The translations under genes and the position numbers were made by a program. Shown here one piece after another: positions 1 to 57,005 of a stretch of DNA of 64,000 nucleotides. Positions within the stretch are counted from its first letter, which is position 1, and each line of letters begins with the position of its first letter. Location: the IMG/VR virus record IMGVR_UViG_3300013947_000036, positions 5,787 to 69,786 of that record; one strand, written 5' to 3'. The notes under the pieces were generated by a model. The model was given only the letters and a program-made list of their open reading frames with translations, did not search any database and was not told the DNA's origin. Source of the DNA: a virus (taxonomy: Duplodnaviria; Caudoviricetes).

Positions 1-336
1 ATAATATTTAATAGATTTTGAAAAGTTTGAATATACTGTTGTATATATATTTTTATCATCTTTTATTTTTTTACAAAATTTTATAAGATCTGGATGTAGT
101 GTTGTTTCTCCTCCTATAAGATCTAAATGTAAATATTTTTTTCCATTTTTAAAAATAACGTTGTATATAAAATTATATAATTTATCTAAATCTATTTTTT
201 TATGTGTTCTTGGAAAAACATTATAACAATATTCACAATTATAATTACAATCATCTATTATAAATGCTAATAATCTAAAACTATTTTTTTTAGAATAAAA
301 ATCTTCATTATAAATTTCTATTGGATATTTTTTCAT
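1..336 (-). CDS. Radical SAM protein (N-terminal part; runs off the window)
   Basis: ATG at 336; DDCNYNCEYC (CxxxCxxC) and LIGGETTLHP motifs. Confidence 0.8.
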   Translation of the reverse strand, partial: MKKYPIEIYNEDFYSKKNSFRLLAFIIDDCNYNCEYCYNVFPRTHKKIDLDKLYNFIYNVIFKNGKKYLHLDLIGGETTLHPDLIKFCKKIKDDKNIYTTVYSNFSKSIKYY

Positions 337-353
337 ATTAAATATTTAAACTA

Positions 354-790
354 TTAAAAAGTATTAAACAATATATATTGTACCATACTATTTTTATTGT
401 TTAAACTAAAACTTCTAATATTTTTATTCAAAATATCGTCAAGAAGAACTCGATATTTAAGTTTCAAGTTTTTAATTAGACTGAATAGTTTTTTCCAATC
501 ATCGATAGAATTATCAAATGATGTTTGCTTCCATTGCTCATTCATTTGATTCAAACTCCTATCAAATTTTGGATAAAACCATCCTTTTTCAAATTTTTTA
601 AATCCACGTCTTGCTATTTCAATAGATGCAGCAAAATCATATCAGGAGTATTTTCATTTCCATATAAAATATTTCCAATAATTGATGTATAACTTGGATT
701 GATTTCAACGACTTCATATCCATGAAGTTTTGATAACATCTTTAACTTATTTTCAAATAGACATCTATCCCAAGAATTTTTATATAACTT
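354..790 (-). pseudogene. tnpB: C-terminal relic of a TnpB-like (IS200/IS605/IS607 OrfB) gene
   Basis: Translates NSWDRCLFENKLKMLSKLHGYEVVEINPSYTSIIG...PDMI/AASIEIARRG, like a TnpB C-terminus; 1-bp frameshift near 633; no N-terminal half. Confidence 0.65.
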
Positions 791-818
791 TCATATTGAT
801 TTGTATAATATTTTATAT
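647..818. repeat. 172-bp inverted repeat, arm 1 (pairs with 4184-4355)
   Basis: Reverse complement aligns to 4184-4355 with 3 mismatches by eye. Confidence 0.9.
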
Positions 819-841
819 TTGTATTTTAAATATTGAAAATT

Positions 842-1644
842 ATGGAAAATAAATAGCAATTTAGTAATTGGAAACAAAAAATTGAAAATGTAAAAATAAA
901 AAAAAAATAGATTGTTTAAGAATTATAGAATTAAATATATCTAATATTTGTAATATTAAATGTCCATTTTGTCCTCATAGTAATAATTGGAATAATTATA
1001 ATGAAAAATTTATTAATATTAATATAATTGATAATATAGTTTATTAGTTAAATAAAATAAAATTTTCAGGTTATATTTGTATAGCAGGTCATGGTGAACC
1101 TACTCTTCATCCTATGTTTTTAGATATATTAAAAAAATTAAGAAATTTTAATGTTGTTTTAGTTACAAATGGAATTCCTATTTCTTAGAAATAGATACAA
1201 GAAATAAATTTATATTGTCAAATAAAAGTGTCAGTTCATTTTTGGAATTAGATAGATAATTATAAAAATAAATTTAAAAATTCAAATGCTATATTTAGAA
1301 ATCATGATATAATAAATCCATAGATGAATATTTATAATAGAGCTGGAAATATTATTTCAAAAACTGATAAAATAATACATAAATGTAATTATCCATTTTA
1401 TAAAATAATGATAGATTCAGATGGAAAATATAAACGATGTGAAGCAGATTGGAATTCTGAAACAAAAACAAATTATTCTATTTTTAATTGTTCAATATTA
1501 AATTATTTTTGTTATAAATTAACAAATATACGACAATAGATTTTAATAAATAGACAATATTGTAATTTATGTAAAAATTGTAATATTTGTGGTGAATTAA
1601 TTGGAAATAAATTTGTAGATTTTTTAAGAAATGAAAAGAGATAA
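842..1644 (+). pseudogene. Radical SAM/SPASM-type protein with frameshifted 5' end
   Basis: Frame 901-1644 open under TAG=Gln: CNIKCPFC, AGHGEPTLHP, C-terminal CxxCxxCxxC; ATG 842 is out of frame; A9 run at 899-907. Confidence 0.65.
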
Positions 1645-2563
1645 TCCATATAAATATAAAAGTGGTTTATCTATTGCAAATGAACCATCAGATAATCTGA
1701 TATTGACAGTTAATGCTAGACAATATCCAGATATGAATTTTATTTATAATACTTTAATACAAAAATTAAATATACAAAATTATAATATAATAATAGGAAA
1801 TGGAATTGAAAATGTACTTAAAAACGTTTTATTAGGTTTAAAACCTAAACAATTAACTTGGTTTTATCCAACATGGGGTTTTATAGATGTATATTGTAAA
1901 CAATTAAATATTATTACAAATAAATATAAATTTATTTTTAGAAATAATTATTTTTATGAAAAAAATATAAAATCTAATATAGATACTTATTATACAACAT
2001 TTACTATAAATAATTTTTTTAATCATACTATTAATATTAATAATATTAAAAAATCAAAAATATGTATTTTAGATGCATCATATATTAATATTATAAATTG
2101 TTAGCAAAATATTAAAAATTTAATAAATAATATATGTAATAATAAATATTATTGTAAAAATACAATTTTACTTGGTTCATTTGATAAAATATATGGAGCT
2201 GGTTTAAGATTAGGTTTTGCTATTTTTCCAAAAAATTTATCAAAAAAAATACTTTTATAGCGAGAAATATTTATAAATTGTGCTGCAGCACAATTTATAA
2301 ATAATAAAAATTTTTTAGAACCTACTAATTATTTTTATAAAAAAATAAAGTCTTTAAATTTTAATAAAATAAAATTAACATATTTATTTATATGTAAAAA
2401 TTTTATAACTTTATGTTTTAATAAAGAACAAAAATTTTAGATATAGCATAAAAAACAATTAATTAAAAAAATGTATTTATATAGATTTGGAATTCCAAAT
2501 TCAATAATTGAATTTAATAAACTTATAATAGAATTTAATAAAAAACAACTTTTTGTAAATTAA
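1631..2563 (+). CDS. PLP-dependent aminotransferase, class I/II (HisC/CobD-like)
   Basis: TAG readthrough; IIIGNG, LDASY and SFDKIYGAGLRLGFA (PLP-lysine) motifs; ends TAA. Confidence 0.75.
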
Positions 2564-2564
2564 T

Positions 2565-3077
2565 ACAATTACTAAATGCATTAATATTTATTTTTTTTAT
2601 AGTTTTTGGTATATAAATTATTTTTAATGAAATACAATTTTTAAATGCATCTTCCATAATATATTTAGTATTATAAAGATATATATATTTTAATTTTATA
2701 CAATTAAAAAACATTTCCTAATTAACATTTTCACTATTTAATATAATAAATTTTAAATTAAAACAATCACAAAATTTATTATTTAAATAAATTTTATTTT
2801 TTTTTGTTAATTTAATATGTTTTTTAAATATAAAAAAATTTTTCTTACAATATTTATTATCTGCGCAATAATTATATTTAAATATATAAATTAAATTAAA
2901 AATATTAAAAATAAAATTTAAAAATATAAAATTTAAAAATGATTTAAAAGAAAACTAAAAATATTTTTTATAAAGCTAATTTAATATAAACTATTTATTT
3001 ATATTATTATCTTTAAATAATTTTTTAGAGTTAGTTATATTAATTAGTATTTTTCCAAAATTTTTTTTCTTTTTCAT
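2565..3077 (-). pseudogene. Degenerate BspA-type leucine-rich repeat gene
   Basis: IMEDAFKNCISLKIIYIP and FFNCIKLKYIYL repeats; frame broken near 2893. Confidence 0.35.
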
Positions 3078-3092
3078 AATTTTAAATTATAC

Positions 3093-3195
3093 AAAAAAAT
3101 TTAATGAGAAAGATGCTAAATCTTCAGCTTAGTGAACTCTATGTCATGCTGAAGACATAACATCTATCTTACGAATTTTTATGTATAAAGTTCAC
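3093..3195. mobile_element. Nested pair of ~50-bp hairpin mini-elements (copy A 3093-3195 interrupted by copy B 3132-3182, opposite orientation)
   Basis: Removing 3132-3182 restores ATGCTAAA-TCTTCAG-CTTAGTAT-AAAGTTCAC, collinear with the other copies. Confidence 0.75.
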
Positions 3196-3211
3196 AATTT
3201 AAATACAATCT

Positions 3212-4174
3212 TTAATGATTGCTAGCTTCAATATATATTTTTTCTTTTTTTATAAGTGGTAAATTACAACAACCAAATTTAATTGGACATATTATTTTTT
3301 TAAATTTAATACTATTATAATATATATTTCCAATTGGTTTAATATTAGTAGAATATGCTGTTTGTGGACAATTATAAATTTCACCAATAGAATTTATATA
3401 AATTGCATCTATACCAGTATAACAAATATAATGATAAAATGTATTTATATTATTATTATTAATAATATCATCTTCAAAAACTTCATATATCTATTTTAAT
3501 TTATAATTATATATTATATATTTCTAATCATGTTTATTTTTAACATAATTATATAAATAATCATAATATTGTTTTTCTTCTAATGTATATAATTCATTAT
3601 ATGAATTTGAATTATCTATAAGAGAAATATCTAAATTATGCATAGATATATTATTTTTTTGATAAAAATCTAAAAATAATTTAAATAAATTTATATTTTG
3701 ATTTATATATTTATGTTCAAATAATACTATATTAAATATATTTTTAAAATTATGTAACTTTATATATTTATTAAAAAAATTATAAACTGTATTATTTGTA
3801 TTATTAAAATGATATGATATTGTTAATTCAAAATTTTTAAAATTTAACAAATCATTATAATAATTAATTGATTCTGAAAAATTTGTATATATATTAATAA
3901 TATAATTTGGATTTTCTTTTATAAATTTTTTTAAATCTGGATGTAATGTTGGTTCCCCACCTAATAATTGTATAATTATTTTTTTATTTTGTAAATGTTT
4001 AGTATTTTTAATAAAAGTTGTTAATTTATTTAAATTAAGATAATTATTTTTATTTTTTCTATAATTTTTAGTTGAACAATATGCACAGTTATAATTACAT
4101 TTATCAATAATATCTATATATAATAGAAATTTTTCAGTAGAATAAAACCATTTATTTTTTACAATTGAATACAT
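3212..4174 (-). CDS. Radical SAM protein with C-terminal Cys (SPASM/twitch-like) domain
   Basis: CNYNCAYC, LLGGEPTLHP; TAG at 3524 read through to TAA 3212. Confidence 0.8.
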
Positions 4175-4183
4175 TTTTTTAAT

Positions 4184-4355
4184 ATATAAAATATTATACA
4201 AATCAATATGAAAGTTATATAAAAATTCTTAGGATAGATGTCTATTTGAAAATAAGTTAAAGATGTTATCAAAACTTCATGGATATGAAGTCGTTGAAAT
4301 CAATCTAAGTTATACATCAATTATTAGAAATATTTTATATGGAAATGAAAATACT
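4184..4355. repeat. 172-bp inverted repeat, arm 2 (duplicated tnpB fragment)
   Basis: See 647-818. Confidence 0.9.
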
Positions 4356-4356
4356 A

Positions 4357-5295
4357 TTAACACATATAAAACTAATCACGATTATTAATAGTTAAAAAAT
4401 CTAACATTTGTTTATCACATTCAATACAAGATTGAAATTTGCCATTTAATATATCAGTATAATCTAAAATATTATCTTTATCAAATTCAGACTAATTTAC
4501 AAATAAATAATAACATATACAAGGGGTAACCTAACATAAATTATTTATACGTATAAATTTATTTTTATAACAATAACATTGTATATTTTTTATATTTGTT
4601 TCTTTTATTTTTTTTAAAAGTTTTCTATATTTATAACTAAATAATAAATCTGAACATATTTTATTATTTGCAAGAGTTTTATTTATATTAAATCTTTCAT
4701 AAATAGGATCAGTATCAATTATTTTATAATTAGAAAACTATTTTAAAATATTAAATATTTTATTATTATCTTCATTTTTATTATATTCAAATTTAATATA
4801 CTACATAACATCATTATGATTATTATTTTTAAATGCTAATGCATTTTCTAAAATATTATTTAATTTTGATCCAACTCTATATTTTTCATGTATTGCTTGC
4901 GTTGTACCACATATAGTAAATATTATTTTTGAGTTTGAATTAAAATGAGTACTTAATTTTTTCCACCAATTTATATTATGAAGTGTACCATTTGTAAATA
5001 AATTAATCTAAATATTTTTATAATAAAAATAATCTATAAATTTTATAAGCTCTGGATGTAATGTTGGTTCTGATAAATTTCCACCTATATTAATTTCTTC
5101 AATATTTGGATATTCACTTAATTTAATTAATAATTTATTAATATCAATAAATTTTTTTGGTAATTTTTTTATAAAAAATTTAAAATTTTTAAGCTATGAA
5201 ATACATAAAGGACACTTTAAATTACATATATTAGATAATTCAATATCTACAATTTTAATATCAGTTTTATTTAATATAAATTTTTTATTTATCAT
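4357..5295 (-). CDS. Radical SAM protein
   Basis: CNLKCPLC, GGNLSEPTLHP, LFTNG, C-terminal CxxC; open under TAG=Gln. Confidence 0.8.
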
Positions 5296-6034
5296 AATTT
5301 TTATTTTTATAAAGTTTATCTAAAAAACATTTTGGAGTACGAATTATTCCATTTTTATTTTTCCAATTTCCATCAAAATAATGTTCAATATAATTTGGCT
5401 AATTATATTGCTAAATATATTTAAGTTTAAGTTTATAAAAATTTTTTTTATTTATTAAATACTAAATATTTGACCACCATTTATCATTAGTCTAAAGAAG
5501 TTTAATACTATTTTGTATATTTGAATTAGATATTGAACCAAAAAAATAATTATCATCTGCAACATTATTTGAAGCATTATTATTATAATGTCGATTTACT
5601 ATAAAACTACCAAGCTAAAGCAACTAATTATCAAATGGTTTAAGAGGAAATGTATCACAATCAACATATATTCCTCCAAATTCTTGTATTATTCTAAGTC
5701 TATATATATCACTTAAAAGTTGTATAAATCGTATTTCTTTTCCATAAAAAACTTCTTGATGTTGAAGTATATACATATATGTCTTATTCAAAATATTTTT
5801 ATATTTTTCATTCTTGTTAAGAATATCAAAAATTACTTCATTTAACATTTTGTCATATATTGAATTTATTTTTCCATTATATATATCTTCAATATTTTTT
5901 ATTGAAAAATGAATTAATTTAACAATAAAATCAGGATTTGCTTCTTTATATGCATTAATACTAAACTATACATAATTTGGAATATTATCTCCAAACCAAA
6001 TCATAAAAAGTTGTTTTGGAATCATTATTGACAT
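5285..6034 (-). CDS. Glycosyltransferase family 32 (DXD sugar-binding)
   Basis: IPKQLFMIWFG N-terminus, SDIYRL..GGIYVDCD motif; TAG readthrough. Confidence 0.8.
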
Positions 6035-7016
6035 TTAAATATTTAAGTTTATCAGTTTAAATACATTTTCTTTTGGTAATCCAAATTCACATGGACATCC
6101 ATTTGACATACATAATGTTTTTGAAAACTTAAGCATATATAAATTATATATATTTCCAATATTTTTATATAACATATCTGCACATGGAAATATATTTCCA
6201 TTAAAATGAACATAAAAATATGTTAAACCAGCATTACATATCCATTTTTTAAAATTAAATGTAATATCATTTTTTACTTGAATTTCTGACATATTACATA
6301 TACTATTATCATTATAATATACACTTATATGTTTATCACAATCAAAATTATTATACTATAATAAACGTTTATTATATTCATTAAGTTCAATGTTAGTATA
6401 TTTTTCATGTCTTATTTTATTAAATTTAGTTTTATCATAATCATCTATTAAATTACATTCAACATTATTATTAAATATCTTAAATAATCTATCATAAACA
6501 TTTAAACATTCAAAATAATATTTTGTATGTAACATTATATGTATAGAAGCTATAGCAATAGTTTTACTTTTTAATTCTAATATTTTCTTAATAAATAAAT
6601 TAGTTCTATATTGATTTAAATAATGAAATGATATTAAAAAATTTACATTATATTTAGCACATTCTATATAAAAACTAATAGGCTAAGAAAAATTTGTAAA
6701 TGAATATAATGATATATTATCTAATTTATATATTTTTTTTTATAAATGATAAATAATTTTTATGTAATGTTGGCTCACCACCTATAAGAATAATTTTAAA
6801 TTTATAATTAAAATATTTTTTTTTCAAAAATTTTATATATAATAATACTTTATCTAAATTTATTTCTATATTAGTTCTAATATAATTATCCTTCATATTA
6901 TAACAATATTCACATTTATAATTACATTTATCTATACAATGAATACATATTTTTATTACATTTGTATATTCACTTGAATCTATTTTAATTGGATAATGAG
7001 TCTTTTTAAATTCCAT
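6035..7016 (-). pseudogene. Radical SAM/SPASM protein with one frameshift in an A9 run
   Basis: CNYKCEYC, IGGEPTLH; removing one base at 6733-6741 joins it to the CNAG...FPCADM...CPC domain (6035-6292). Confidence 0.7.
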
Positions 7017-7656
7017 TGTAATTATTTTCACAATTTTTAATAATATCTTCAATTTGAATACGTTTTGAATATTGTCCAGCAAAAATAAAATTAAATTTAC
7101 TGTTATTTAAAATCTTATATGCTAATGGAAATAAATCATATGCATATGGAAAAACATATATATTAGTTTTCAATTTAAATTTATTCAAATCAACAATTGC
7201 ATGCTATATATCAATATTAAATGCATGCATTTGTTGAAATTTTGTCAAATTCATATTTTTCAAATCAAGATGCTATGCACCATGACAAGCTAAATAAATA
7301 TTGTCAAATTCAAGAAGTTCTCTAATTTCATCTATTGACATATATGCATTAAATGCATTTTTATCACCATTATGTATTCTATCATGAAACTTTGCACAAT
7401 CAGCTTCATAAATTGGTTTTGCATTGTTTTGTCTAAAAATTCTTGATGAAAATCCTAATACACAATATATATTTTTAGCTTTTAATTCTTTTATTTTTTC
7501 TTTTATAAAATAAAACTATGAATATAAACAATCATCAAAAAATATTAAATCATTGTCATTTAAAAATGACATAATATCTTTAAAAACAAAAGTATGATGA
7601 ATTACAATCATTCTCTTTATGTTTTGAAGAATATAACTAAAACAATATTTCATCAT
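7006..7656 (-). CDS. Polysaccharide deacetylase-like (CE4/NodB) protein
   Basis: FFDDC, ACHGAQH and VFPYA motifs after TAG readthrough. Confidence 0.65.
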
Positions 7657-8492
7657 AGATTCTTGCAAATCCAATCATATAATAATCCTTTATATATTAT
7701 ACTATGTCTAATAAATTTAGATGATGTCAATTCATGAATATAATTTATCCATTTGCTAGCTTCAAGAATTTCGCATTTTTTTCCATTATTTTCAGGAATA
7801 AAAGAAATATCATAATCAATACATGACAAAAAATCATCAATACCATCTTCAAAATTACGTTTAATATCTTTAGGTGATATTATTCTATGTTTAGACTAAA
7901 TTGCTTCAAGCAAATTCTATGGAAAAGTATCTTCAATATTTGAACATCTATAATAAAAATAATGAGAACAACTTTTCCAAAAATCTTTTGAATCATATGT
8001 ATGTCTCCAATTTGGATTAGTAGCTAAATAATTTTCAATACACTATTTGTCACCCATTGTAATTATTGGAACATGTATATTTTTTACAAAATCTATAAAT
8101 GCAATATTAGATTCTACTCTAATATCTCTTGCATAATATCCTATACTTGGAAATTCATTAACTTCAAAATTGCTTTGATATATAGTTGGAAACCAACATT
8201 GATATTTGTCAATATTTTTTCTGTAATATGAATATCCATCTACAAGTTTTTTACCAGGGAAAAAACTTGCATATTCTTTTCTGCACATTACAAAATCATT
8301 TAGTCTATCTAAACATGAATATTTATAAAAATATGGATTCTAAAGTCTCCAAATTCTATTGTCTTTTGGAATCTATTCTATATTTATATCATAAGACTTA
8401 AAAATATCTGGATATGTATTTTCCAGATATTTTACAGTTATTCCAGATCCTATTGAATTCTTTTTAAGCTAATATATTAAATTATATATCAC
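7653..8492 (-). CDS. Hypothetical protein
   Basis: GTG start overlapping the upstream stop; open to TGA 7653 under TAG=Gln. Confidence 0.6.
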
Positions 8493-9190
8493 TTCACCAT
8501 TTTATAATTTTCAAGATTTGAACGATATATATTAAGTTGTTTTTCAACTTCATCTACGGTTGTAGCATTTTCTATATTTTTTCTAGTTTCAGTCAAAAAA
8601 TCTGTAGTATGTTTTAATTGCATCAATTTATCATAACTATTAAGATACTTTTCAAGAGTATTTAAATTGAATTGTGTAGTATCATATTTTTGCTTCTTTT
8701 CAATATATTCTTGCTCTTGTTCAAATGTTGCATTTTCATCTAGTTTTTCAGGTTCTTCACATTCTTGTGAAGCTTCAATTACTTCAAAATATTTATCTTC
8801 TCTATTAGCATCTGTAATGAAATATCCTGCATTCAAAAGTGACACATAATTATTCAAATAATCCATCAAATCAATTACTGAAACTGTAAACAACGCTTGA
8901 TGCATTCGTGCTGAAACTTCATTTATAGCCATTTGTTTACATCTAGCTAAATCATCTAATGCTTCAATGACTAAATCTTTTGGTTGAACTTCTGGATATT
9001 CTAATGTTTTGCATATTGTTATTTTCTTTCCAGCAGCTAATGCTTTTTTACAATCTTCAATTGTCAACAATGTTGCTCTCAATGTACTGCAATCTGGTTC
9101 AACTAGCATTGCATTAGAATATGTAATACCTAATACTTGCCAAAAATTTCCTTGATCTTTAACTAAAAGAAGTTCAAAATTATGATCCAT
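8489..9190 (-). CDS. Hypothetical phage protein
   Basis: 233-aa ORF with no internal TAG. Confidence 0.75.
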   Translation of the reverse strand: MDHNFELLLVKDQGNFWQVLGITYSNAMLVEPDCSTLRATLLTIEDCKKALAAGKKITICKTLEYPEVQPKDLVIEALDDLARCKQMAINEVSARMHQALFTVSVIDLMDYLNNYVSLLNAGYFITDANREDKYFEVIEASQECEEPEKLDENATFEQEQEYIEKKQKYDTTQFNLNTLEKYLNSYDKLMQLKHTTDFLTETRKNIENATTVDEVEKQLNIYRSNLENYKMVK

Positions 9191-9602
9191 TTTTTATTTT
9201 TCCTATTTTTCCAATTTGAAATTTTACATAATCAATATTATCATCTGAAATATGATACTTTTGTTTTAAAATCTGCACTATTGATCTTAATACCTATGAT
9301 ACTTCAGTTTTATTATACATCTATGTAAACATATCAATATATATTATACTTTCAATAATATTGACATGTTTGATTTTATGTAATTTGTCTTTAATATATT
9401 CAGAATAAAGTTTTAAATTTTTATGATTTGCTGGAATTTCAGTTTCTAATGATTTTTTGTATACTTTATCATTGACTATTATCTGCAAATTTTTTGGAGT
9501 ATTGCAATTGTATATGTTAGTATTAACAGGAAAATCACATTTTTCCAAATGTATTTCTTTCAATGATGTACAATTGTTAAATGCTCCAAATTCTATAATC
9601 AT
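9180..9602 (-). CDS. Hypothetical protein with one BspA-type LRR unit
   Basis: IEFGAFNNCTSLKEIHL; TAG readthrough to TAA 9180. Confidence 0.5.
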
Positions 9603-9605
9603 AGA

Positions 9606-10592
9606 TCAATAGTAGTTGCAATTTCCATAACACCAACAAACTGAATATCCATTGCAATCAGAATAACATATGCAATCCTAAATTTCATTATTAGCTACAA
9701 CTTCAAAAACATTTGTTATTAGTTCTGTTTCTATCAAATTAGTTTCATTAGACAATTTATCTGAATGATAAATCCAATGATCATGTTTTCGATTGCCAGT
9801 TTTTTTATCATTACCTTCTGGTTGCATTTTGCCAAGAATATTATTCAATTCTTTAAGTTCTTTTATAATATTACCAGATTGTGCAGTATTTAAACGTTCA
9901 ATACCAGTATTATTATTATTCCAAGCATATTTTGGAGATTTATTTTTTTCTCTAATTCTTTTATTAAGTACATCTACTAACCAATTATAATCACCTATAC
10001 TTATATTATAGTATTTAAGTATAGTATCATGAGATATTTCTATAAATTCTGAATTTAATATATGACCTCTACACTCAGATTGTATTTCTGTTCTACTACC
10101 TTGGTAATATTTTGTATCTTTATATGCTACAGATTCTACTTCTTGTTTAGTATAAGAATATGCATGGTTTTTACAATAAATTATTTCATCATTTGATTTT
10201 GGAACAGGCATAGACCAGTGTTCTGGAAAATCATGTGAATCAATTATAGTTGAAAGTGGACGACGAACACTATTTGTTGACAAAATTGGTTTTCCTTTAT
10301 CATCATATCCAAAATCATCTTCATCATATGAAGTTTTAACAATAGGCACTTTAGATCTAAAAATACATTTATATTCAGTTATATTATTAAATGATGTATT
10401 ATCATCTTCTGGATATACTGTAAATATACAACCTTTTTCTCCATGACATGAAAATCCAACAGCACATAAATCTTCTTCTTTAATTTTTTTATCTGGATTA
10501 TCATGTAACTTATCAAGTAAACTATATCTATAATCATTATAATATTCTGGTAATTTTACCTATTCATTAATATTTGATAAATTAATTGACAT
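9606..10592 (-). CDS. 328-aa protein with C-terminal Cys-rich tail (CICYSDCNGYSVCWCYGNCNYY)
   Basis: ATG 10592; the tail lies beyond TAG 9678; ends TGA 9606. Confidence 0.75.
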
Positions 10593-10594
10593 AA

Positions 10595-11671
10595 TCAAAT
10601 TCCTTGTGTTAAATAAACATAATTCAATAATTTAGAAATATATCCAAACCATTGATAATATTTACATTTATTTTTATTGTTTGATCTACATGATGACCAA
10701 TTTTTGTATATATCTTCATCATCTTTCAACTAAGTGACATGACATGCAGAACAATGTGTAGCGCCACATTTAATGCATTTTTCATCTAGTTCCATATTGA
10801 ATTTTTCAGAAATAACTTCATATAATGAATTTATGTCATTTATATTGTTAGTTATAAACTTTTTTGAATTTGAAAGATATGGACATCCATGACAAATGTA
10901 AATATTTCCATCATTATGCATATGAATACTATTTGCTAATCCACAATTCATTTTTCTGCCATCACTAAACCATTGCCATAATGGTTTATGGTTCTTTTTA
11001 ATGTATTGCAATTCTTTTTTAGCAACTTCTACAACAACTTTTTTCCAAATTTCAAATATTTCAGGTTTTGGAGAAGTTGCAGTATCTAATGTTGGAAAAT
11101 ATGTAACTTTATTGTCAAATCTATTTGCTAATTCTTTATATGAATCCCAAATTTCTGGAAGTTTATCTATCAAATCATATGACAATGTAGCTTTGAATGA
11201 AAACTAAATATCATTATCATATAAATATTGAGCAGTTTCTATTACTTGTTTTCCAGTATTTCCACGCTTCAATGTATGATGTGGTTCACCATCATAAGAC
11301 AATTGAAAATGAAATTTATGTTTATTTTTCTAAAAATAATCTTTAGAAATTAAAGTTTTAAATCTATCAATCAATGTTCCATTTGTATAACAATGATATT
11401 TGACAAAATCATAATCACATGTATTTTCTATGATTTTATCCATAAAATCAGTATTTAAAAATGGCTCTCCACCCCAAAATGACAATATAAATGAACTATA
11501 TTTGTCTTTATCAAAATTTTTGCATGCATCAATTATAAGCTATAATTGTCTATTTTCAATATCTAGATTTCTTGGATTACATGTATGAGAACCTTCAAAA
11601 CAATATGCGCAATTGCAATTGCAATTATTAGTAAGTGTTACTTCAACAAATATATGTGGTTTATTGTCCAT
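10595..11671 (-). CDS. Radical SAM/SPASM-domain enzyme (peptide/protein maturase-like)
   Basis: CNCNCAYCFEG, FWGGEP, YTNG, SYDG; C-terminal CGL...YICHGC...CxxC...CxxC. Confidence 0.85.
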
Positions 11672-11967: not shown

Positions 11968-12017
11968 ACAAAATTCGCAAGATAGATGCCATGACTTCAG
12001 CATAGCATAAAGTTCAC
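11968..12017 (+). mobile_element. 50-bp hairpin mini-element (copy 2)
   Basis: TTATAC|ACAAAATTCGCAAGATAG ATGCCATG-ACTTCAG-CATAGCAT AAAGTTCAC. Confidence 0.7.
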
Positions 12018-14755: not shown

Positions 14756-17700
14756 TTAATGTATCTAATTGAAATAACTAGTGACATATAGTTTAGAATC
14801 ACCAATTTTGATATAATCATTATTTTTCTCAATCTAAGTTTCAATATCTTTATATTTGTCAGATTTAATATAATATTTGTCAATACTAGCTTGTACACTA
14901 TCATGAAAATCATCATTGATTTTATCATCAACTAATTGCAAAATAAATTTAGGTGTAGTATCTGATATGTTTTTAATGAAAAATATATGAGATGGAATCA
15001 AAGCATTATTGACAATTTTCTGCAATTGCAAATAACCTGAATTTCCAGGTGAATCTAGATTCAAAAACTAATGTTTTATGTTATATAGATTTTTAAGACT
15101 AGAATCTTGCTTAAAATCATGTTCAGTATGGTAATTGTACCATTTAGTGTTGAAATCAAGTTTTATGCCTTTAGTTGTGTTATACCAACAAACAGACAAA
15201 ACATCTTCAGTTCCATTGTTGTTGTATAAACCAATTATATATTGATTGCTAATATTTGCTTGATATTGTGATCTATAAGTACCTGGATCATATAATTCAT
15301 GTATATTTCTAATGTTTGTTGCTTTTATAAGATATGCATTATCTTTGAATTTATCAAAAGTTTTTTTCGAAAATTCACCATCAGTTTTATTAGTAATATC
15401 ATTCAAATCTACATTAAATTGTTCATCTATACGTATTGATATGTCTGTTGTTCCAAGTTCAGTCTAAAATTGTGTAGGATCATATATATATCTTGAAATT
15501 GTCTATAGACGTTTTTTCATTTCAGAATATCTTGCATCAGTATAATTACCAACACGATAGCTATTTGCTTTAGTATCAGATGAATCAAATATTTCATTGT
15601 ACTATTTTGTGCTATAACTTTCATGCATTCTTGCTGGAATAGCAAATTTGAAGAAAATACCTTTATTACTAGTAGCCGATGGTTTACCTATAAGTTCAAA
15701 TTTAACCTATTGTTTCTATATCAAATTTTTCTGCCAACAGCTACCATTGTTGTTATCATTAGTCTAATAAATATTGTTATCTTTATCTCTAAAAGTTTTT
15801 ACAAATCCCATATTTCCATACAATACATATTTTCTGTCAATATTAGACAAAGGTTTTATTTGTTTTGAGTCATAAACTAATTCTCGTGTCGTTATTGATC
15901 TATTTATAGTGTCAATTTTGTCATTTATTGACTAATTATTTGATTTTATCTATGGATAATTACTGAAAATATGTCCTAATCTGTCTTTTAAACTTAGATT
16001 ATTGTTTGTCAATTTATTGTTTATGTATGCAACTGTTATATTTTTTTTATCTGTTACATTTATATGTATCTTAGTGTTAACGCTTAAATCATTGCAAGTT
16101 AAATCATATCTTAGATAATTTTTGACTTGATCACCATATTTTTCATTTTTAATCCAATATGGCATATAGATTGTATATCTATTATTATTTAGTTTTGTTG
16201 CAACAACACCTAAATTTGTATTGTTGTTGTAGAAACCTTCAAAAGTATAATCAGATAATGGAATATACTAAGTAGAATCAGAATAACCACTTTGAATATC
16301 TTGTGTCAAATAATAATTGTATTTGTTTTGTTCAAGTGAACTATCAAATATCTTCTTTATGTTAGCATGTATAACTTGTGTTTCATTATTAGAATTTTCA
16401 GTATATTTGCATACAAACATCAATTCAGATTTATCTTTTGAAATTGTAAAATCATATACAGCTGGAAATTTAAAACTATTTAAATTGTTTCCAAAATTTG
16501 ATATCATATTAACATTGTCAAAAGCTGTATTTGATTTTAACACTAAATGTTTGTTGTTGATATATTTTATTTGTGATATGTCATTTTTGTAATTATTACT
16601 AGTATCATAAACCATCATTGGAAAAGCAATTGGATGGTTTTTTATTCTCATGAACATTATTCCAGGTTTATCTTTCCAATAATCACTATCTAAATGTTTT
16701 GCATCTTTTATATTTCTAATACTATTATCATATTTGACTAAAATATACATATTATTGAAATAATCTCTTCCATATCTGTAAATGTTATAATATGGATTAT
16801 TAGCAACAGCTGTTAAATATGAACTTAAATTTGTCAACTATGAAGTTATTTGTGACAATTCTGTCTAAGACAAATTCAATTTATTGTACCATTTGTTAGT
16901 TTGATTATTCAATGATATTTTAAATTCATTAGAATTTTTCAAAAATTCATAGATAGTTGTTGGATAGAAAATGCCATCATAGTCAATATGTTCAACAGTG
17001 ACGTTCAATGGAGTTTTATTTGATGATTTTTCATATATTGAAATATAGTCAGAATTGACATTATATGGATTATTCCATACATTTTTAAGATATCCATTTT
17101 GATCTATATAAGTAGACAATTTATTGTATAGAATATCTGAGAATTTTTCAGAAATTATGTTTGCAATATTGTCAATTGGATAGTCAAATTCATCTGAATA
17201 CATAAATGCTTGCAAATATGGATGGATTTGATATGATGGATGTTTTTTGTTTTTCAAATTGTAAAATGATTCTGATCCAGATGACAAACCACTGTATTTT
17301 TTGAACAATCTATTTTTGTAGTCTCTAAATGAAGATAATTTAGATTGATTGTAGTTTGAAATTGAATTTGTCAAATTCAAATCAATATTGCAACATATGT
17401 TTCCATTTGAAGATTTGAATGTATTGTCTGCTCCTGTGTTATAGACATTGTTCAAAAAATTATTCAATGTAGTTTTCTATTTGTCATCATATTTAGATAA
17501 TGATAATGTTGATTTAATTGGTTCAAGTTGCATTTGCAGATTTTGACTATACATACTATAGATATTGTCAAATGTAAATTCTGTTTTAGATGAACCTTTT
17601 ATGAAATTAGAATTTGAAAAAATATTGTTTGAATTATGTGGCAATGACTGATTTATGTATTTTGATGATTCCCAAAATCTTGCATTTACATTTTCATTTT

Positions 17701-19177
17701 CAGCATCATTTGCAGTGCTTATGTTGAAGTATTCAGTTGGATCTACATATTCATTTACATTGATTATTACATCTGAAACTTGATATTCATGTATTTGATC
17801 AGTGGCATTTAGTTGCTAACATATTTTTTTGTATACAGGATAAATATTGTTTTTTACATATTCTCTGACTACATATGACAAATGAAGTTTTGTTCCTTTA
17901 AGAAAATTCTTTTGGACTTGAGTTTTTATTTGTTCACGAATTTCACGTATTGAATCTGTTATTTGCGCTAACAATTGAGCAACATGTTCAATCATCTATT
18001 GATTTATGTTATAGTCATCACTATTTTTAGTATATAGTCTCTAAGATGTGTTTTTGACAATCAAATATGAATTGTCGACATTGTATTTCTAAGAATCTAT
18101 ATACAATGACAAATAGTTTGAATATTCATTTTCAACAAACTTGAAATATTCTTGCACTGCTTTTTGCCTGTAATAATAATATCTTGACTATAGTTCATTT
18201 GCACTTAAAGGTTGGTTTCTATATGCTTGTTCAGCACTTAGCAAATATTGTTCATGAATTGAATAATCTGAAAATTTTGTGTATCCATTTTCTATTTTAT
18301 CATATTCAACGACTTGATTAAAACTTTTTGAAACATTGTATTTTAATCTATATTTTTCTAATTTGTCAATTTCATCAATATCAGTATTTGCAATAGTGAA
18401 ATCTGAAAGAATTATTGTGTCAGACAAATCTCTATAGATTTCTAAATCAGACCAATTGTATTTAAGATGACAATAATCTGACAATACTTTATTGTAGACA
18501 GCTGAAGTGAAATTGTAAAGCAAATTGCTGTTTATGTATGGTTTGTATTTGACTGATATGTTGTCTTTGCCTAATTCTGTAGACAAAATTATAGATTCAT
18601 CTGTTGTATTGAATACAGATGTCAATCTAGCATTAGTCAATTTTTCTATGTTTGACATCAAATCTACTGATGTTTCTGTATTTAAACTTGAAATTTGTTC
18701 ACCTAACAACTATGCAAACAATGGTTGAACTTTATTTCCATTTAACAAATATTCTTTTTTTATTGATAAAACATCTATCAACTTCAATATTTTCAATGGC
18801 ATTAATTTTATTTTGTCAAAAACAGTATAATTAATGCCTAATTGACTTATCATTGATTGCAAGGATTTTATCTTGCAAGTGTCAATATCTGATATATTGT
18901 CAATAAAATTCAAAATATTTGATTCAAATACTTCTGAAATATTTTCATGTAAAAATGAATCTGACAATGATTTTTCAGCAATATTCGACAAAGCATTCCA
19001 AATATATGAATCTTTTGTGTTGCTGTTTCCAGACAATGTATCATAAGCAGTCTTTTTGAAATTGAAATTATTGACTGCATTTACAGCTTCTCTAGTAAAA
19101 GAAAAATTATTTGTGTTTTTTTCTATTAAAGATATATAATTACTTAATTCATTACTACTTATGACATTTTCACTCAT
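14756..19177 (-). CDS. ~1470-aa baseplate/tail-associated protein
   Basis: Seven track ORFs share one frame, separated only by TAG; directly follows the gp6-like gene. Confidence 0.7.
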
Positions 19178-37849: not shown

Positions 37850-39622
37850 TTGTATTGTCTAGACGAAATTTTGAATATGCATAATGAATCAATAGAAGAT
37901 ATTTTGAGAAATAGACTTAGTGAAATGAAACCAACAGCATTTTTTTGTTGGCTGAAAAAACAAAAAGAAATTCTAAATGAAATATCTAAGTTCACAGAAA
38001 AATTAAATGACAGAAAATTCAGTTTAAGGACAAAATTGTATTGGTATTTGAATAATTTAGTTGATTTTCCAAGATGTACAGTATGTGGAAAATTGATTGA
38101 AAAAGACATTGTGAACATGAAAATTGGCTATCATAGAACATGTTGCAAAAAATGTTGCTATAAAGATGAATCTAGAAACAAGAAAATATCAGAAGTATAG
38201 TTAAATAAATCAATTGATGAAAAGCTCTAGATTGAATCTAGAAAACAACAGACATGTTTAAAAAGATATGGTTGCAAATATACATTTTAGTCTGACAACA
38301 ACAAAGAAAAAACAAAATTGACTAATTTGAAGAAATATGGTTGTGAAAATTGCATGCAGTCTGATGTCATCAAGAAAAAAATGAAAGAAAACAATTTGAA
38401 GAAATATGGTTGTGAAAACGTTTTCCAAGTCAAAGAAGTCAAAACAAAATCAAGACAGACATTGAAAAAACATTATGGAAGTGAAAGATGTCTATATTCA
38501 AATTCAATTATTGCTGAAAAACGAATCAAGCATATGACAGAGACTTTAAGGAGAAAATCTTATAGAAACTGCATTTTGCAAAATGCATTTGACAAACCAT
38601 GTTTCACAGAAGACTATTTTGCAGAAAACTACAGCAAAGATTCAGAATTTGAATTTGAATGCAAAAAATGTGGAAACAAATTTCATTCAAAACATATAGC
38701 TGGTTGCCATATGCTTTGTCCAAAATGCTATCCAAGAACATCATCATTTCCAGAAAGACAAATAAGTGACTATTTGAAAAGCATATGCAAAGAAAACATA
38801 ATTCTCAATTCAAAAAACATCATTCCACCTTATGAACTTGACATATACATTCCTGAAAAGAAACTAGCTGTTGAATTTGATGGCTTGTATTGGCATGCAT
38901 TTGAAAATTTCTTGAAGTCAAAAGGAGACAAAAACTACCATCTAGCTAAGACTGAGATGTGTGAAAAACTTGGAATACAATTGATACATGTTTTTGAAGA
39001 TGAATGGAAACACAAACAAAAAACAGTTAAAAATCTGCTTAAAAACATTTTGAATATGGATACTGAAAACAATCAACTGAATGGAAACTATGAAATAAAA
39101 CTAGCAACATCTGATGAAAGTGAAAAATTCATAGATGAAAACTGTCTTTACAGTAACATAAATTCAAAAATACATCTTGGATTATATAAAGAAAAAGAAC
39201 TTGTAGCATTGATGTTGTTTGGAAAATCTAGATTCAAAAGACAGCATGAATGGGAATTGCTTAGATTCTGCATAAAGCAAAACTATGTCATATATGATGC
39301 AGCTTTTGAAAAATTGCTTAATTTTTTTGAATAGAATTTCAAACCTAAATCATTAGTTTCATATGTTGACAGACGATGGAACACTGCAAAACTGCATCAG
39401 AAACTTGGATTCAACTTGTTGAAAAAAACTAAGCCAAACTATTTTTATGTAGACAATAAACATCAACAAAGATTCAAGAATTTTCAATTCAAAAAACAAA
39501 TATTGAAAAACAAACTTAAAAACTACAATGATTCATTGACAGAATACCAAAACATGAGAAACAATGGATATGAAACTATATATGATTGTGGAAATCTTGT
39601 AATGGTGAAAACATATGTCTGA
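37850..39622 (+). CDS. Homing-endonuclease-like protein HE2
   Basis: Same architecture as HE1, with SYVDRRW...LGF motif; five TAGs read through. Confidence 0.7.
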
Positions 39623-40607
39623 AAAATTGAAAATACAATTAGAAAAACTCATTGAATCATGTCCAAGAAATTTCATGAGAGTGTTGAAAAGCAAAGCAAA
39701 CAGACAATTGCTAGATGAACTTACAGAAAAAACAAAGTTTTTAAGCAAAAACGCAACACTTAAAACACGAATTTTTTGGATATTGAATGGCATTAGTTCA
39801 TGGAATGACAAACTAGTTTGCTGCAAAATATGTAGAAAACCATTAGACAATTTCAATGTTCTGTCAATAACGAAAGGATACAAAAAGACATGCAGCAAGA
39901 AATGTGAAAGAAAATTAGCATAGGAACAATATGAAAAAACATGTGAAAACAAATATGGTTGCAAAAATGCATTTCAAATAGATGATGTGAAAGAAAAACT
40001 GCTTGAAAACCAAAAAGAAATACAGAAAAAACGTGATGAAACTAGACAAATGCATTTCAAAAATGAAAAAGGATGGAATTTGTCAAAATCATTGAAAACA
40101 AGACTAGAAAAATATGGACATGCATGGAACATACATGCTGTTAAATTCACAAAATTCAAAAAATATGGAAATTGCAATTGGAACAATATTGAAAAAAATA
40201 TTCACACAAAAAGAAAAAATGGAACTTTCAACACATCATCACAAGAAATAATAGCACATGAATTAATTTGCTAGAAATTCACAAAAAATGATGTCATTTG
40301 GCAATACAAATCAGAAAAATATCCATTTCTGTGTGATTTCTATGTTAAATCTTTAGATTTGTACATTGAATGCAATTTTTCATGGACTCATGGAGGAATG
40401 TTTTTTGATGAAAACAATGAAAATTGCATTGAAAAACTAGACAAATGGAAAGAAAAAGCAAAAACATCTAGATTCTATGAAAATGCATTGAAAACATGGA
40501 CAATCAGAGATATAAAGAAATTGAAAACTGCTTAGGAAAACAAATTGAATTACAAAGTGTTTTGGACATTAGATGAAATACTTAATTGGAAAGGTGAAAT
40601 AGTTTGA
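39615..40607 (+). CDS. Endonuclease-like protein HE3
   Basis: Shared N-module; C-terminal YPFLCDFY..LDLYIECNFSWTHGG nuclease motif. Confidence 0.65.
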
Positions 40608-50817: not shown

Positions 50818-50867
50818 TTGAAAATCATAAGATAAATGCCATGTTGAAGACATGGCATAGAGTTCAC
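50818..50867 (+). mobile_element. 50-bp hairpin mini-element (copy 3; loop inverted)
   Basis: TCATAC|TTGAAAATCATAAGATAA ATGCCATG-TTGAAGA-CATGGCAT AGAGTTCAC. Confidence 0.7.
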
Positions 50868-51695: not shown

Positions 51696-52409
51696 TTATC
51701 TTTTATATGGAGATTCAATTTTATTTAACTCTATCATTTTTATGTTTTTTACAACAATCGATTTGTCATAAAATTTCATGAATATCCAAAAACCTGACAT
51801 TCTTTCTAAAATAAAACCTAATGCACGTTTTTGATATTTGTCTCTTAAATCTAGATTCAATTCTGGCAATATTTTCAAAGCAATATCAATACATATGTTT
51901 ATAAATTTGCTATATTCAAAAAACATTTTTTTGCTAAATACAAACATATTGCATTTTGCATAAACATGCTAATTAAGATATGTATTCAATAAAATTTGAT
52001 ATTCTTTTAAATATTTAGAAAATAAACTTAAAAATAAATCAAAATCATGTTTAATATGATATAAACAATAAGATTGATATATTGTAAAATATTTGTTTTT
52101 GCTAAATGTACATAAAATATTGTTGTCATTTAAATCATCAATTTTAAAATCTAAATATCTACGATATTGCGCAATTCCAATAAAATCTGGATTTCCAAGC
52201 AATTCATAATTTTTACTTAACCAATATATCATTGACATTTCATTCAAATATTGATTGTATTTTGATATATTGTCAATTCCAATGTCATCAGTGAATATCA
52301 TTTTAGATGAATTATATCCTCCACATCCAATAGGAACATATATGTCTTTTTTGAATTCATCTATAATTTCTGTTTCAAAACTATAGCAAATTGGAATTTT
52401 TAATGTCAT
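51696..52409 (-). CDS. DUF4422-like (glycosyltransferase-associated) protein
   Basis: DDIGIDNISKYN..LNEM..IYWL.KN....DFIGIAQYRRY, NMF, ER motifs. Confidence 0.7.
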
Positions 52410-52423
52410 TAAATATATTTTAC

Positions 52424-52475
52424 AAAAAAAATTGACAAGAAAGATGCCATGTCTTCAGCATGGCATAGAGTTCAC
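52424..52475 (+). mobile_element. 52-bp hairpin mini-element (copy 4)
   Basis: TTTTAC|AAAAAAAATTGACAAGAAAG ATGCCATG-TCTTCAG-CATGGCAT AGAGTTCAC. Confidence 0.7.
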
Positions 52476-52567
52476 AAAAAAAATGATAAAAAGATATTTT
52501 TATGTTTTAGATTATTTTTTTTTTGAAAAGTAAATAATAAATAACTTTATAAAGGAAAAAAATAAAA

Positions 52568-52768
52568 ATGACAGTAAATCAAGTAAGAAATTATATGATA
52601 AATAATATGCATAGAAATTCAGTTTTATATGCTGCAGCAGCTACATTAGCATTATTATCTGATGAAGTATCATCTAATGTATCATCAGAAGTATCATCTA
52701 ATGTATCATCAGAAGTATCATCTAATGTATCATCAGAAGTATCATCTAATGTATCATCTAATACATAA
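52568..52768 (+). CDS. 66-aa protein with SSEVSSNV tandem repeats
   Basis: Promoter motif at 52526, AAAGGA upstream, four 24-bp repeats at ~52664-52762. Confidence 0.5.
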   Translation: MTVNQVRNYMINNMHRNSVLYAAAATLALLSDEVSSNVSSEVSSNVSSEVSSNVSSEVSSNVSSNT

Positions 52769-52843
52769 TTTTAAAATTAGATTGTATTTAAATTATAAAA
52801 ATAAATAAATTTCATAAATAGAATAATTTTATTTTTAAGTTGA

Positions 52844-52893
52844 GTGCACTCTATGCCATGCTGAAGACATGGCATCTTTCTTGTCAAATTTTT
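52844..52893 (-). mobile_element. 50-bp hairpin mini-element (copy 5)
   Basis: GTGCACTCT ATGCCATG-CTGAAGA-CATGGCAT CTTTCTTGTCAAATTTTT; near-identical to copy 4, inverted. Confidence 0.7.
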
Positions 52894-52948: not shown

Positions 52949-54166
52949 ATGCAATTAGTAGAGAAACATATTATAAAAAGAGAAGATTCTAGATACAAAG
53001 AACTTATGGAACTTTGTCATCTTTCTAAGAATCTCTACAATACTGTTCTCTACACTATCCGTCAACATTGGTTTGAAACAAAAAACGATGACACAATCAC
53101 ACATAAATTTCTCAACTACTATGATGTTTGGAATATTTTAAAAAAAGACAATGTTGATTTTAAAGCTTTGAATGCACATTCTTCTTAGTTAGTGATAAAA
53201 CAAGTTGAAGCAAATTTCAGTTCGTTTTTCTCATTACTGAAACTCAAGACACAAGGAAAATATACTAAAAAAGTCCATCTTCCAAAATATCTTGACAAAG
53301 ATGGCTATAATGTGATTTCTTTCAACCAATTCAAGAAAAAAGAATTGAAAAACGGATATGTTTCATTACCAAAATCAAAAACATTGAAATTCAAAATCAA
53401 AAACACAAATCTTCATTTTATCAATATCGTTCCAAAGAATGACTATGTTCAAGTGAATTTCATCTACAAAAAACAAGAAGAATCTTTGAAAAAAGACAAT
53501 GGAAGATACATAGGAATAGATTTAGGTATAGACAATCTTGCAACATGTACTTCAAATGCATTGCAATCATTTATCGTAGATGGAAAGAAAGTCAAACATA
53601 TAAATCAATTTTACAACAAAAAACTAGGAGAAGTTAAATCAGAATTAAAAAAGAAAAACAACAAAGAAAAATCACATAAAACAAGACAATTGACATTAAA
53701 ACGAAACAATAAAATACAAGACTATTTTCACAAAGCTAGTCGATATATAATCAATCAAGCAGTTTCCAATGATATTCGAACAATAATAGTCGGACACAAC
53801 AAGAACTGGAAGCAAGAGGTTAATATCGGAAAAGTTAATAATCAAAAATTCGTTCAGATTCCTTTTGACAATTTGATTCATCAACTTAAATACAAAGGTC
53901 AATTGAAAGGAATAAATGTAATTGAAGTTGAAGAAGGATATACATCAAAGTGTTCTTTTCTAGACAATGAATCTGTTGAAAAACATGAAAAATATCTTGG
54001 AAAAAGAATATATAGAGGATTGTTCAAAAATTCAACAGGAAAAGTCTTGAATGCTGATGTGAATGGAAGTCTAAACATCATGAGAAAATATCTAAAATGT
54101 AACTGTGATGCTATTAAGCCAACAGATGCAGGGTTTGTGTATAACCCAGTTAAAGTCTACCTTTAA
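52949..54166 (+). CDS. tnpB: TnpB RNA-guided endonuclease (TnpB1; no tnpA)
   Basis: MQLVEKHII, SKNLYN, GIDLGIDNLA, EEGYTSKCS, NADVNGSLNI; one TAG at 53186 in SS(Q)LV. Confidence 0.9.
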
Positions 54167-54426: not shown

Positions 54427-55035
54427 ATGAAAAGCTGTAAAGTATTAAAATTATTAAATATAACACGTCCAACATTATGTAGATATGTTAAAAATGGTTT
54501 AGTTAAATTTAAACAACTTCCGAATGGTTTTTATGATTATGAAGAAGAATCTATCTATAAACTTTTAAATAAAAATATTGAACGTAAAAATATTATTTAT
54601 GCACGAGTATCTACACAAAAATAGAAAAATGATTTAGAAAATCAAAAAGCAATACTTAGAAAGTATTGTTCAATAAATGGGATAAAAATTTCTGATGAAT
54701 ATTCTGATATTGGTTCAGGAATAAATTTTGAACGGAAAGAATTCTAGCGATTAGTTAATGATGTAGTTAATCATAAAATTTCAAAAATCTATATAACATA
54801 TAAAGATAGATTGTCTAGAATATCATTTGATATGTTTAAGAATTTATTTTAGAATTTTAATTGTGAAATTATTGTTTTAAATAATACAGATGATAACAAA
54901 CAAATTGAAAAAGAGATTTTCAATGAAATAATTAGTTTGATACATTGTTTTGCAATGAAAGTTTATTCTTCTAGACGTTAGAAAAAATTAAAAAATATTG
55001 AAGAAGATTTAAAAATTGAAATAAATGAAGAATAA
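54427..55035 (+). CDS. tnpA: IS607 TnpA (MerR-like HTH + serine recombinase)
   Basis: IIYARVSTQK(Q)KNDLENQ, DIGSGINF, KDRLSRISF; four in-frame TAGs. Confidence 0.9.
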
Positions 55036-55128
55036 ATATTATTAATATTAATAATATTTAAAAATAAATATTAAAATAAAAGTAAATAATATTAAAAAAT
55101 GTAAATAAAATAAAGTAAATAAATACAA

Positions 55129-56549: not shown

Positions 56550-57005
56550 ATAGCAAAAACTAGACTTGGATTGTTTTACAACAATCATTTGATAGCTGTC
56601 ATGACATTCACAAAATCTAGATTCAACAAAAAATATGAATATGAATTGAGCAGATATGCAACAATTTCAAATTTCACAATTATTGGTGGAGCTGGAAAGC
56701 TTTTGAAATATTTTGAAAGAAATTTCAATCCAAAATCTATTGTCACATATGCTGACAGAAGATGGAGTAAAGGAAATCTATATTTCAAACTTGGATTCAA
56801 ACTAGATCATATATCAACTCCAAATTATTTCTATGTGAAAAACCAACATAGATTTTCAAGAATTCAATTTCAAAAACATAAACTTGAAAATATTCTAGAA
56901 AATTTCAATCCAAATTTATCTGAAGCTCAAAATATGAAAAACAATGGCTATGGAAAGATATATGATTGTGGAAATCTAGTATTTGAGAAAACTTATGAAA
57001 AATGA
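56550..57005 (+). pseudogene. HE7 3' fragment (GNAT-like domain)
   Basis: RLGLFY...VMTF...YELSRY...GGAGKLL...TYADRRWS.G.LY..LGF...YDCGNLVF. Confidence 0.75.

Follow-up and report, generated by a model that had tools for sequence, protein, structure and literature searches.

The question raised by positions 3093–3195 of this phage DNA is whether two short hairpin elements, one lying within the stem of the other, record the movement of mobile DNA or have a regulatory origin. The window, the 64-kb stretch analysed here, is part of a 69.8-kb viral contig (G000) of 24.6% G+C with an estimated completeness of about 25% (CheckV). It encodes a T4-type tail sheath, and TAG has to be taken as a sense codon for its reading frames to tile the DNA, an example being the TAG-rich ORF at 14756–19177 (1,473 aa, 21 TAGs); no tRNA genes were found in the window. 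Under the TAG-sense code the nested site falls in a 134-nt gap between two minus-strand genes encoding a radical SAM protein (3212–4201) and a leucine-rich-repeat protein (2535–3077). The first of these belongs to a cluster of radical SAM genes on the minus strand at 1–11671, with GGEP and CxxxCxxC motifs, reminiscent of the T4-like Campylobacter phages CP220 and CPt10, which are rich in radical SAM genes and are carriers of TnpB-only IS200/IS605 elements. The nested site also lies within 3.4 kb bracketed by a 172-nt inverted repeat (647–818 and 4184–4355, 98% complementary), with arms that cover the sequence upstream of a divergent pair of radical SAM genes. Two early readings of the repeats, as a giant-virus early promoter of the AAAATTGA type and as a CRISPR-like repeat, were dropped once the tail sheath and TnpB genes had been found.

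Read on the plus strand, positions 3087–3195 comprise in order TTATAC, an outer linker, a left stem arm, a loop, CTTA, an inner copy, GTAT and a tail. The TTATAC at 3087–3092 is the target motif (TAM) directly 5′ of the outer copy; read on the other strand it gives GTATAA(T), 10 nt ahead of the leucine-rich-repeat start codon. The left part of the outer copy (3093–3131, plus strand) consists of the 20-nt linker AAAAAAATTTAATGAGAAAG (3093–3112), the last 4 nt of which are the guide AAAG (3109–3112), the left stem arm ATGCTAAA (3113–3120), the loop TCTTCAG (3121–3127) and CTTA (3128–3131), with which the right arm begins. Its right part (3183–3195, plus strand) consists of GTAT (3183–3186), the rest of that arm, and the tail AAAGTTCAC (3187–3195). 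Between the two parts lies a complete inverted copy of 51 nt (3132–3182, minus strand; covariance model E 3.9e-16) which, read on its own strand, has the linker ATAAAAATTCGTAAGATAG with the guide ATAG, the stem ATGTTATG/CATGACAT, the loop TCTTCAG and the tail AGAGTTCAC. The observation in the first-pass annotation that this inner copy is inverted and follows TTATAC in its own orientation holds, with 3183–3188 reading TTATAC on the minus strand (the reverse complement of the GTATAA of the outer copy) and serving as the target of the inner copy. The outer copy has this same TTATAC flank, as do two further copies, one at 11968 and one at position 4095 of the genome.

The annotation had further claimed that deletion of 3132–3182 restores a canonical copy, and this was borne out in two ways. 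When 4,800 start/length deletions were scored against a weight matrix made from the other copies with the inner copy left out, only 51-nt deletions rebuilt a family member, scoring 36.8 bits as against -0.8 without deletion, while elsewhere in the 69.8-kb contig only seven sites scored 20 bits or more. Likewise, a covariance model built from 18 other copies with the outer copy left out aligns G000:8874–8981 (window 3088–3195) over its full length, with a single large insert (E 8e-6). In the uninterrupted outer copy as predicted, the left part is joined directly to GTATAAAGTTCAC. Deletion of 3132–3182, 3133–3183 or 3134–3184 gives an identical product, leaving the boundary ambiguous by 2 nt because the target and the end of the element both finish in AC (GT on the plus strand). 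An IS607-style insertion by a serine recombinase (2-nt GT..GT) was considered for this ambiguity and set aside for the simpler account that target and right-end motif both end in AC.

The rebuilt outer hairpin is weak, with six Watson–Crick pairs, one G-T and one A-C, and the minimum-energy DNA fold of the rebuilt copy differs from the canonical stem, indicating that the outer copy is old and decayed. The right arm of the outer copy reads GTAT where other copies read GCAT, and it is only for this reason that the ATAC target followed by the ATAG guide of the inner copy exists. The composite as it stands folds into a long imperfect hairpin (about -13 kcal/mol) of a kind prone to slippage by assemblers and polymerases, raising the alternatives of an assembly artefact at the palindrome or a local inverted duplication of the outer copy, the latter named in the annotation as a finding that would count against insertion. 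The two copies are however of different subtypes, with the guides ATAG and AAAG and an identity of 73%, while the inner copy matches copies lying 9 kb and 49 kb from it at 82–83% identity, indicating that the nested copy is not a local duplication. Since in addition the inner copy is intact throughout its length and sits directly against the correct target, and no other length of deletion restores the outer copy, duplication or artefact is hardly credible as the source of the arrangement.

A relative with the outer copy uninterrupted, as the annotation had proposed to find, was sought in viral and metagenome contigs and none was found. The predicted empty-site 33-mer had no match in the viral contigs and a 29-mer able to catch either the filled or the empty state had none in the metagenome contigs, while the flanking radical SAM protein had no relative in the viral contigs. 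A protein search returned a next-best match of 33% identity, and no close relative was present in the viral contigs, metagenome contigs or GenBank phages searched.

The nested copies belong to a family of short elements of 50–52 nt, each with a left linker and guide, one hairpin and a right tail ending in TTCAC, of which there are eight in the 69.8-kb contig. Other copies in the window are found at 11968–12017 (plus strand, covariance model; guide ATAG, flank TTATAC) between two minus-strand genes, at 50818–50867 (plus strand; guide ATAA, flank TCATAC), at 52424–52475 (plus strand; guide AAAG, flank TTTTAC) 9 nt from the start of a minus-strand DUF4422 gene (51696–52409), and at 52844–52893 (minus strand; guide AAAG, flank TTTTTC) upstream of the first of two TnpB genes, TnpB1. 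A weak match at 56591–56627 lies inside a coding gene and was rejected as a chance match. The motif is present in twelve loci of IMG/VR viral contigs of 42–52% G+C, with about 14 copies in contig G003 and about eight in G004. Pairing in the stem has been kept, with 92.6% of cells pairing compared with 14–49% when the partner columns were slid, and two pairs are doubly changed. Identical 51-mers occur at different loci, both in G003 (41801 and 58797) and in G001 (9502 and 149766), the latter two having an imperfect stem in common. Scanning 185,579 prokaryote genomes for the exact motif gave no match and a looser motif gave one true match, in a Sphaerochaetaceae MAG, and three chance matches; GenBank phages showed no DNA similarity to the element.

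Several copies depart from the common form. In two of them the loop is reverse-complemented (TTGAAGA at 50818–50867 and CTGAAGA at G003:74083–74139) while linker and tail keep their orientation, as expected if copies in opposite orientation recombine within the self-complementary stem. A copy at G004:276–319 is without the hairpin apex (GATGCC directly followed by GGCAT), and a remnant at G003:54576–54670 holds an inverted fragment of the right tail. The near-identical mini-elements at 52424–52475 and 52844–52893 are arranged head-to-head, each abutting the start region of an outward-facing gene, and enclose 368 nt (52476–52843) that contain one AAAGTAAATA box and a 66-aa ORF with SSEVSSNV repeats.

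The origin of the short copies can be read from full-length relatives in which the same hairpin forms both ends. In this lineage the order is a TTTAC target, an 18–20-nt linker with a guide, a hairpin, tnpA and tnpB, a second hairpin with its own guide and a 9-nt tail ending in TTCAC, the hairpin having an 8-bp stem and the 7-nt loop TCTTCAG. The element at 75057–76969 of G001 begins with TTTAC followed by AGGAGAACCAACGAGAAAG, a hairpin and ATGAATCG, and ends with GGAAG, a hairpin and AGAGTTCAC; it encodes a TnpB of 432 aa and, on the opposite strand between tnpB and the left end, a Y1 tnpA (PF01797, Y1_Tnp, E 1.2e-20), an arrangement that is the classic IS605 layout. This is the only tnpA found with the ends of the family and it carries an in-frame TGA and a frame change. 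A second full-length relative lies at 38225–39678 of G002 and has a TnpB of 458 aa; this element has a group of tRNA genes next to it (L014:63–472 and 2509–2579). At three places (G002/L005, G001/L017 and the Sphaerochaetaceae MAG contig) a tnpB ends in the motif in the same orientation, and in the last of these the right end comes immediately after the TnpB C-terminus. A second hairpin stands upstream of tnpB in G001 and G002, after TTTAC or TTAC and the A-rich linker of the short copies, with a different tail (ATGAATCG...). ORFs with PF01385 and PF07282 end 7–40 nt before the right-end boundary (G001, G002, L037), and the subterminal hairpins lie on the same strand in direct orientation without terminal inverted repeats (L017/L032 in G001, L014 in G002). 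Forms intermediate in length, of about 216 and 319 nt with both hairpins kept, are found in G003.

In keeping with membership of the IS605 group, these elements show subterminal hairpins, insertion without duplication, covariation of guide and motif, asymmetric linkers (18–20 nt left, 9 nt right) and a TnpB that runs into the right end. The short copies, which combine the left linker with a single hairpin and the right tail, are therefore IS605-type ends fused through the repeated hairpins, and the repeats are very probably non-autonomous, terminal-only derivatives of IS200/IS605 elements in a TAG-recoded T4-like phage. Neither a cognate tnpA nor a tnpB with the ends of the family was found in the 69.8-kb contig; a search with PF01797 found no Y1 tnpA in G000, G002, G003 or G004, and no TnpB match was found in G003 or G004. 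The window does encode two other TnpBs, a lone one at 52949–54166 with one TAG codon, and one in an IS607-type pair at 54427–56520 in which the serine-recombinase TnpA has four in-frame TAGs and the TnpB has none. Both proteins are unrelated to the TnpB of the mini-element family and the covariance model found no mini-element hairpin at their ends, and the motif was accordingly rejected as the right end of TnpB1 or TnpB2. A search of Rfam returned nothing in the window and nothing at the ends of the full-length elements.

The choice of target follows the guide. Among copies with A at the second guide position, 28 of which have AAAG, 30 out of 31 have T at the first target position, their flanks being TTAC in 27 and TTTC, TTAT and TCAC in one each, whereas all seven copies with the guide ATAG or ATAA follow ATAC (Fisher p 6e-7 for the covariation). 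The exception to this rule is the outer copy of the nested site, which has the guide AAAG with ATAC and brings the copies with an ATAC flank to eight. The right-end guide of the full elements, GAAG, goes with the end TCAC, and a single pairing register fits AAAG/TTAC, ATAG/ATAC and GAAG/TCAC; the one left-type guide of the short copies mismatches the right-end motif TCAC. The flank is kept beyond the usual 4–5 nt, as ATATTTAC or ATTATAC, and in G003 at least 8 of 14 ATATTTAC sites hold an element compared with about 12 of 126 TTTAC sites, an excess that fits either selection or recognition of a longer target. IS608 inserts at TTAC and has the right end TCAA. In IS608 a tetranucleotide guide 5′ of the hairpin foot reads the cleavage motifs, with linkers of 19 nt left and 10 nt right and the guides AAAG left and GAAT right (PMC3597680), and in the ISGst elements, which have TTCAC at their end, guide and motif covary in a similar way (PMC10055086).

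Comparison between G003 and G001, which align over kilobases, shows both clean insertion and the shortening of long elements. An empty site in G001 reads ..GGAATATTTAC directly followed by AAAAACC.., while the filled site in G003 reads ..GAAATATTTAC, 51 nt and AAAAACC.., with exactly 51 nt between TTTAC and AAAAACC and no duplication. At two further orthologous sites, each with kb-scale flank alignments on both sides, a long element of G001 has a short counterpart in G003: an 89-nt remnant stands in place of the full 1.9-kb IS at one, and a 51-nt copy in place of a remnant of about 320 nt with both ends at the other. It follows from these three sites that insertion is clean and that long elements shorten in place. 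The inference in the first-pass annotation that the inner copy had inserted 3′ of TTATAC without duplication thus agrees with the IS200/IS605 mechanism, insertion 3′ of (T)TATAC, and with the clean 51-nt empty/filled pair.

The positions of the copies might suggest instead that the repeats are a regulatory cassette, a terminator-like hairpin set beside a promoter and spread by recombination rather than transposition. Copies occupy intergenic gaps 7–25 nt ahead of start codons, antisense to the gene that follows, and adjoin boxes that are the flank in reverse complement (GTAAATAT in the phages of higher G+C, GTATAAT in the ATAG subfamily), and the reverse strand of three copies was flagged as terminator-like. 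The empty G001 site, however, already reads terminator-TTTTT directly followed by GTAAATAT; the -10-like box is therefore target-bearing phage sequence and not part of the element, and since it lies outside the element, siting next to promoters provides no argument for a regulatory origin. Furthermore, recombination would not give guide/target covariation or exact 51-nt boundaries, the same hairpin forms both ends of tnpA/tnpB elements, and no sigma-70-type promoter was predicted inside the element at 3093–3195. PeSL cassettes of T4-type phages combine a stem-loop with their own promoter and spread by recombination, and REPs, the single hairpins of the REP/REPIN system, are mobilised by RAYT, a relative of Y1 transposases, and have a GTAG motif. 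The present elements resemble both in being short intergenic hairpin repeats but, unlike PeSL cassettes, they do not carry a promoter within the unit, the promoter-like box here being the target sequence, and neither the domesticated RAYT gene nor the GTAG motif of REPs was seen here. A regulatory cassette as the origin of the repeats is thus largely refuted and very unlikely, although the hairpins may possibly have taken on a secondary role as terminators after insertion. The preference of the annotation for mobility over a purely regulatory origin is in turn strengthened by the tnpA/tnpB relatives with the same hairpins, the covariation of guide and flank and the empty/filled pair.

For the mobile elements so recognised, a sequence of events can be proposed at the nested site. 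Elements of this family enter in single-stranded form 3′ of a 4–5-nt target that pairs with the left-end guide, leaving no duplication; here the step would be carried out by a Y1 TnpA acting in trans, none being encoded in the 70-kb contig. The 50–52-nt copies would arise when two directly repeated hairpins recombine and the core between them is lost. At 3093–3195 an older AAAG copy would have drifted until its right arm read GTAT (ATAC on the other strand), whereupon a second element, whose ATAG guide matches ATAC, would have entered the older copy in inverted orientation. Because the short copies at the two orthologous sites are shortened longer elements, the inner copy may also have arrived longer, and on balance we lean towards its having entered as a longer element that later collapsed rather than as 51 nt. 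The family transposes through a circular single-stranded intermediate, and the right-end to left-end junction expected for the elements would read ..GAGTTCAC joined to ATAAAAATTCG.., but the 51-nt circle whose junction the annotation had proposed to amplify may never exist.

The other course, in which the 51-nt single-hairpin unit itself transposes with TnpA supplied in trans and the inner copy entered as 51 nt, is possible but rather doubtful. The lengths of the short copies are uniform and the copies are numerous in G000, G003 and G004 with few or no long elements there, the polymorphic empty/filled site of G001 and G003 shows the 51-nt form only, and in a parallel from Haloquadratum all six of six strain-specific ISHwa23 insertions are of the 52-bp form (PMC3119063). 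On the other hand, TnpA dimers of this family bind a hairpin at each end (PMC3597680), of which the short copies have one, and the guide fits the left flank and not the TCAC of the right end. The in-place origin of short from longer copies at the two orthologous sites likewise speaks against mobility of the unit, and the identical 51-mers at different loci in G003 and G001, which would suit a mobile unit, could also have been yielded by identical parent elements. A more speculative extension, to be held more tentatively still, is that the 51-nt unit is a Y1 substrate, excised by means of a single hairpin and guide, its target tuned to the complement of the promoter core (GTAAATA or GTATAAT) and its landing insulator-like. 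If true, the unit would be about the smallest DNA transposon known, and the elements would land harmlessly between terminator and promoter with the hairpin perhaps retained as a terminator-like insulator.

Short elements of this type have a close precedent in the terminal-only PATEs of Haloquadratum walsbyi, which include HqIRS46 in its core-deleted form and ISHwa23 in its 52-bp form (Dyall-Smith et al. 2011, PMC3119063). The two sets have in common a length of about 52 bp, fused IS605-type (TnpB/IS1341) termini with a single near-terminal palindrome, an origin by repeat-mediated deletion between the two end palindromes, the lack of inverted terminal repeats and of target duplication, and frequent nesting of one element in another, and the possibility that the short form is itself mobile was raised for PATEs too in 2011 (PMC3119063). 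The present copies have the non-coding length, fused termini, one palindrome and derivation by deletion that define terminal-only PATEs (PMC3119063). They differ in residing in bacterial phage genomes, including one that is TAG-recoded, rather than in a haloarchaeal chromosome, in having unrelated sequences, and in their concentration by promoter-like boxes just upstream of genes. As 52-bp terminal-only IS605-type derivatives and their nesting have been known since 2011 (PMC3119063), the elements add a further case to a type of mobile DNA already on record.

The elements described here also resemble IS608 of Helicobacter pylori and ISGst1-5 of Geobacillus stearothermophilus, in having one-strand subterminal hairpins, asymmetric linkers, a tetranucleotide guide, insertion 3′ of a 4–5-nt motif without duplication and tnpB, with a match to Y1 tnpA in G001, the left guide AAAG being the same as in IS608 and the right-end TTCAC the same as in ISGst. 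They differ in the sequence of the hairpin, in having a second subfamily retargeted to ATAC via ATAG, in the loss of the inter-hairpin core from most copies and in that the only tnpA with these ends is broken. ISCaje1-4 of CP220 and CPt10 are likewise carried by T4-like Campylobacter phages (Timms et al. 2010, PMC2853527), the genetic code of which is the standard one. They are IS200/IS605 elements, mostly TnpB-only, in AT-rich T4-related phages with many radical SAM genes, and the portions of that description drawn on here make no mention of mini-derivatives (PMC2853527).

What the phages add is a natural record of guide-directed target choice, in which the shift from AAAG to ATAG moves landing from TTAC to ATAC and one ATAG element has landed in the degenerate hairpin of an earlier copy. 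Terminal-only PATEs are extended from haloarchaea to phage genomes, including that of a stop-codon-recoded phage, and an explanation is given for repeats that might otherwise be annotated as regulatory signals of the phage. The phages also offer a compact system for testing the mobility of single-hairpin derivatives.

Two further repeated sequences were noted alongside the mini-elements. One is a multicopy segment of about 540 nt, found in G003 (65221–65758) and in three places in G004 at 95–96% identity and 72% identical to the AT-rich window at 435–709; it encodes a 95-aa ORF without a Pfam match and often adjoins a mini-element. Finally, the AAAGTAAATA box occurs 16 times in the window (19186–63909) compared with 1.4 expected, upstream of genes, which suggests that these boxes are a variant of the T4 late promoter.
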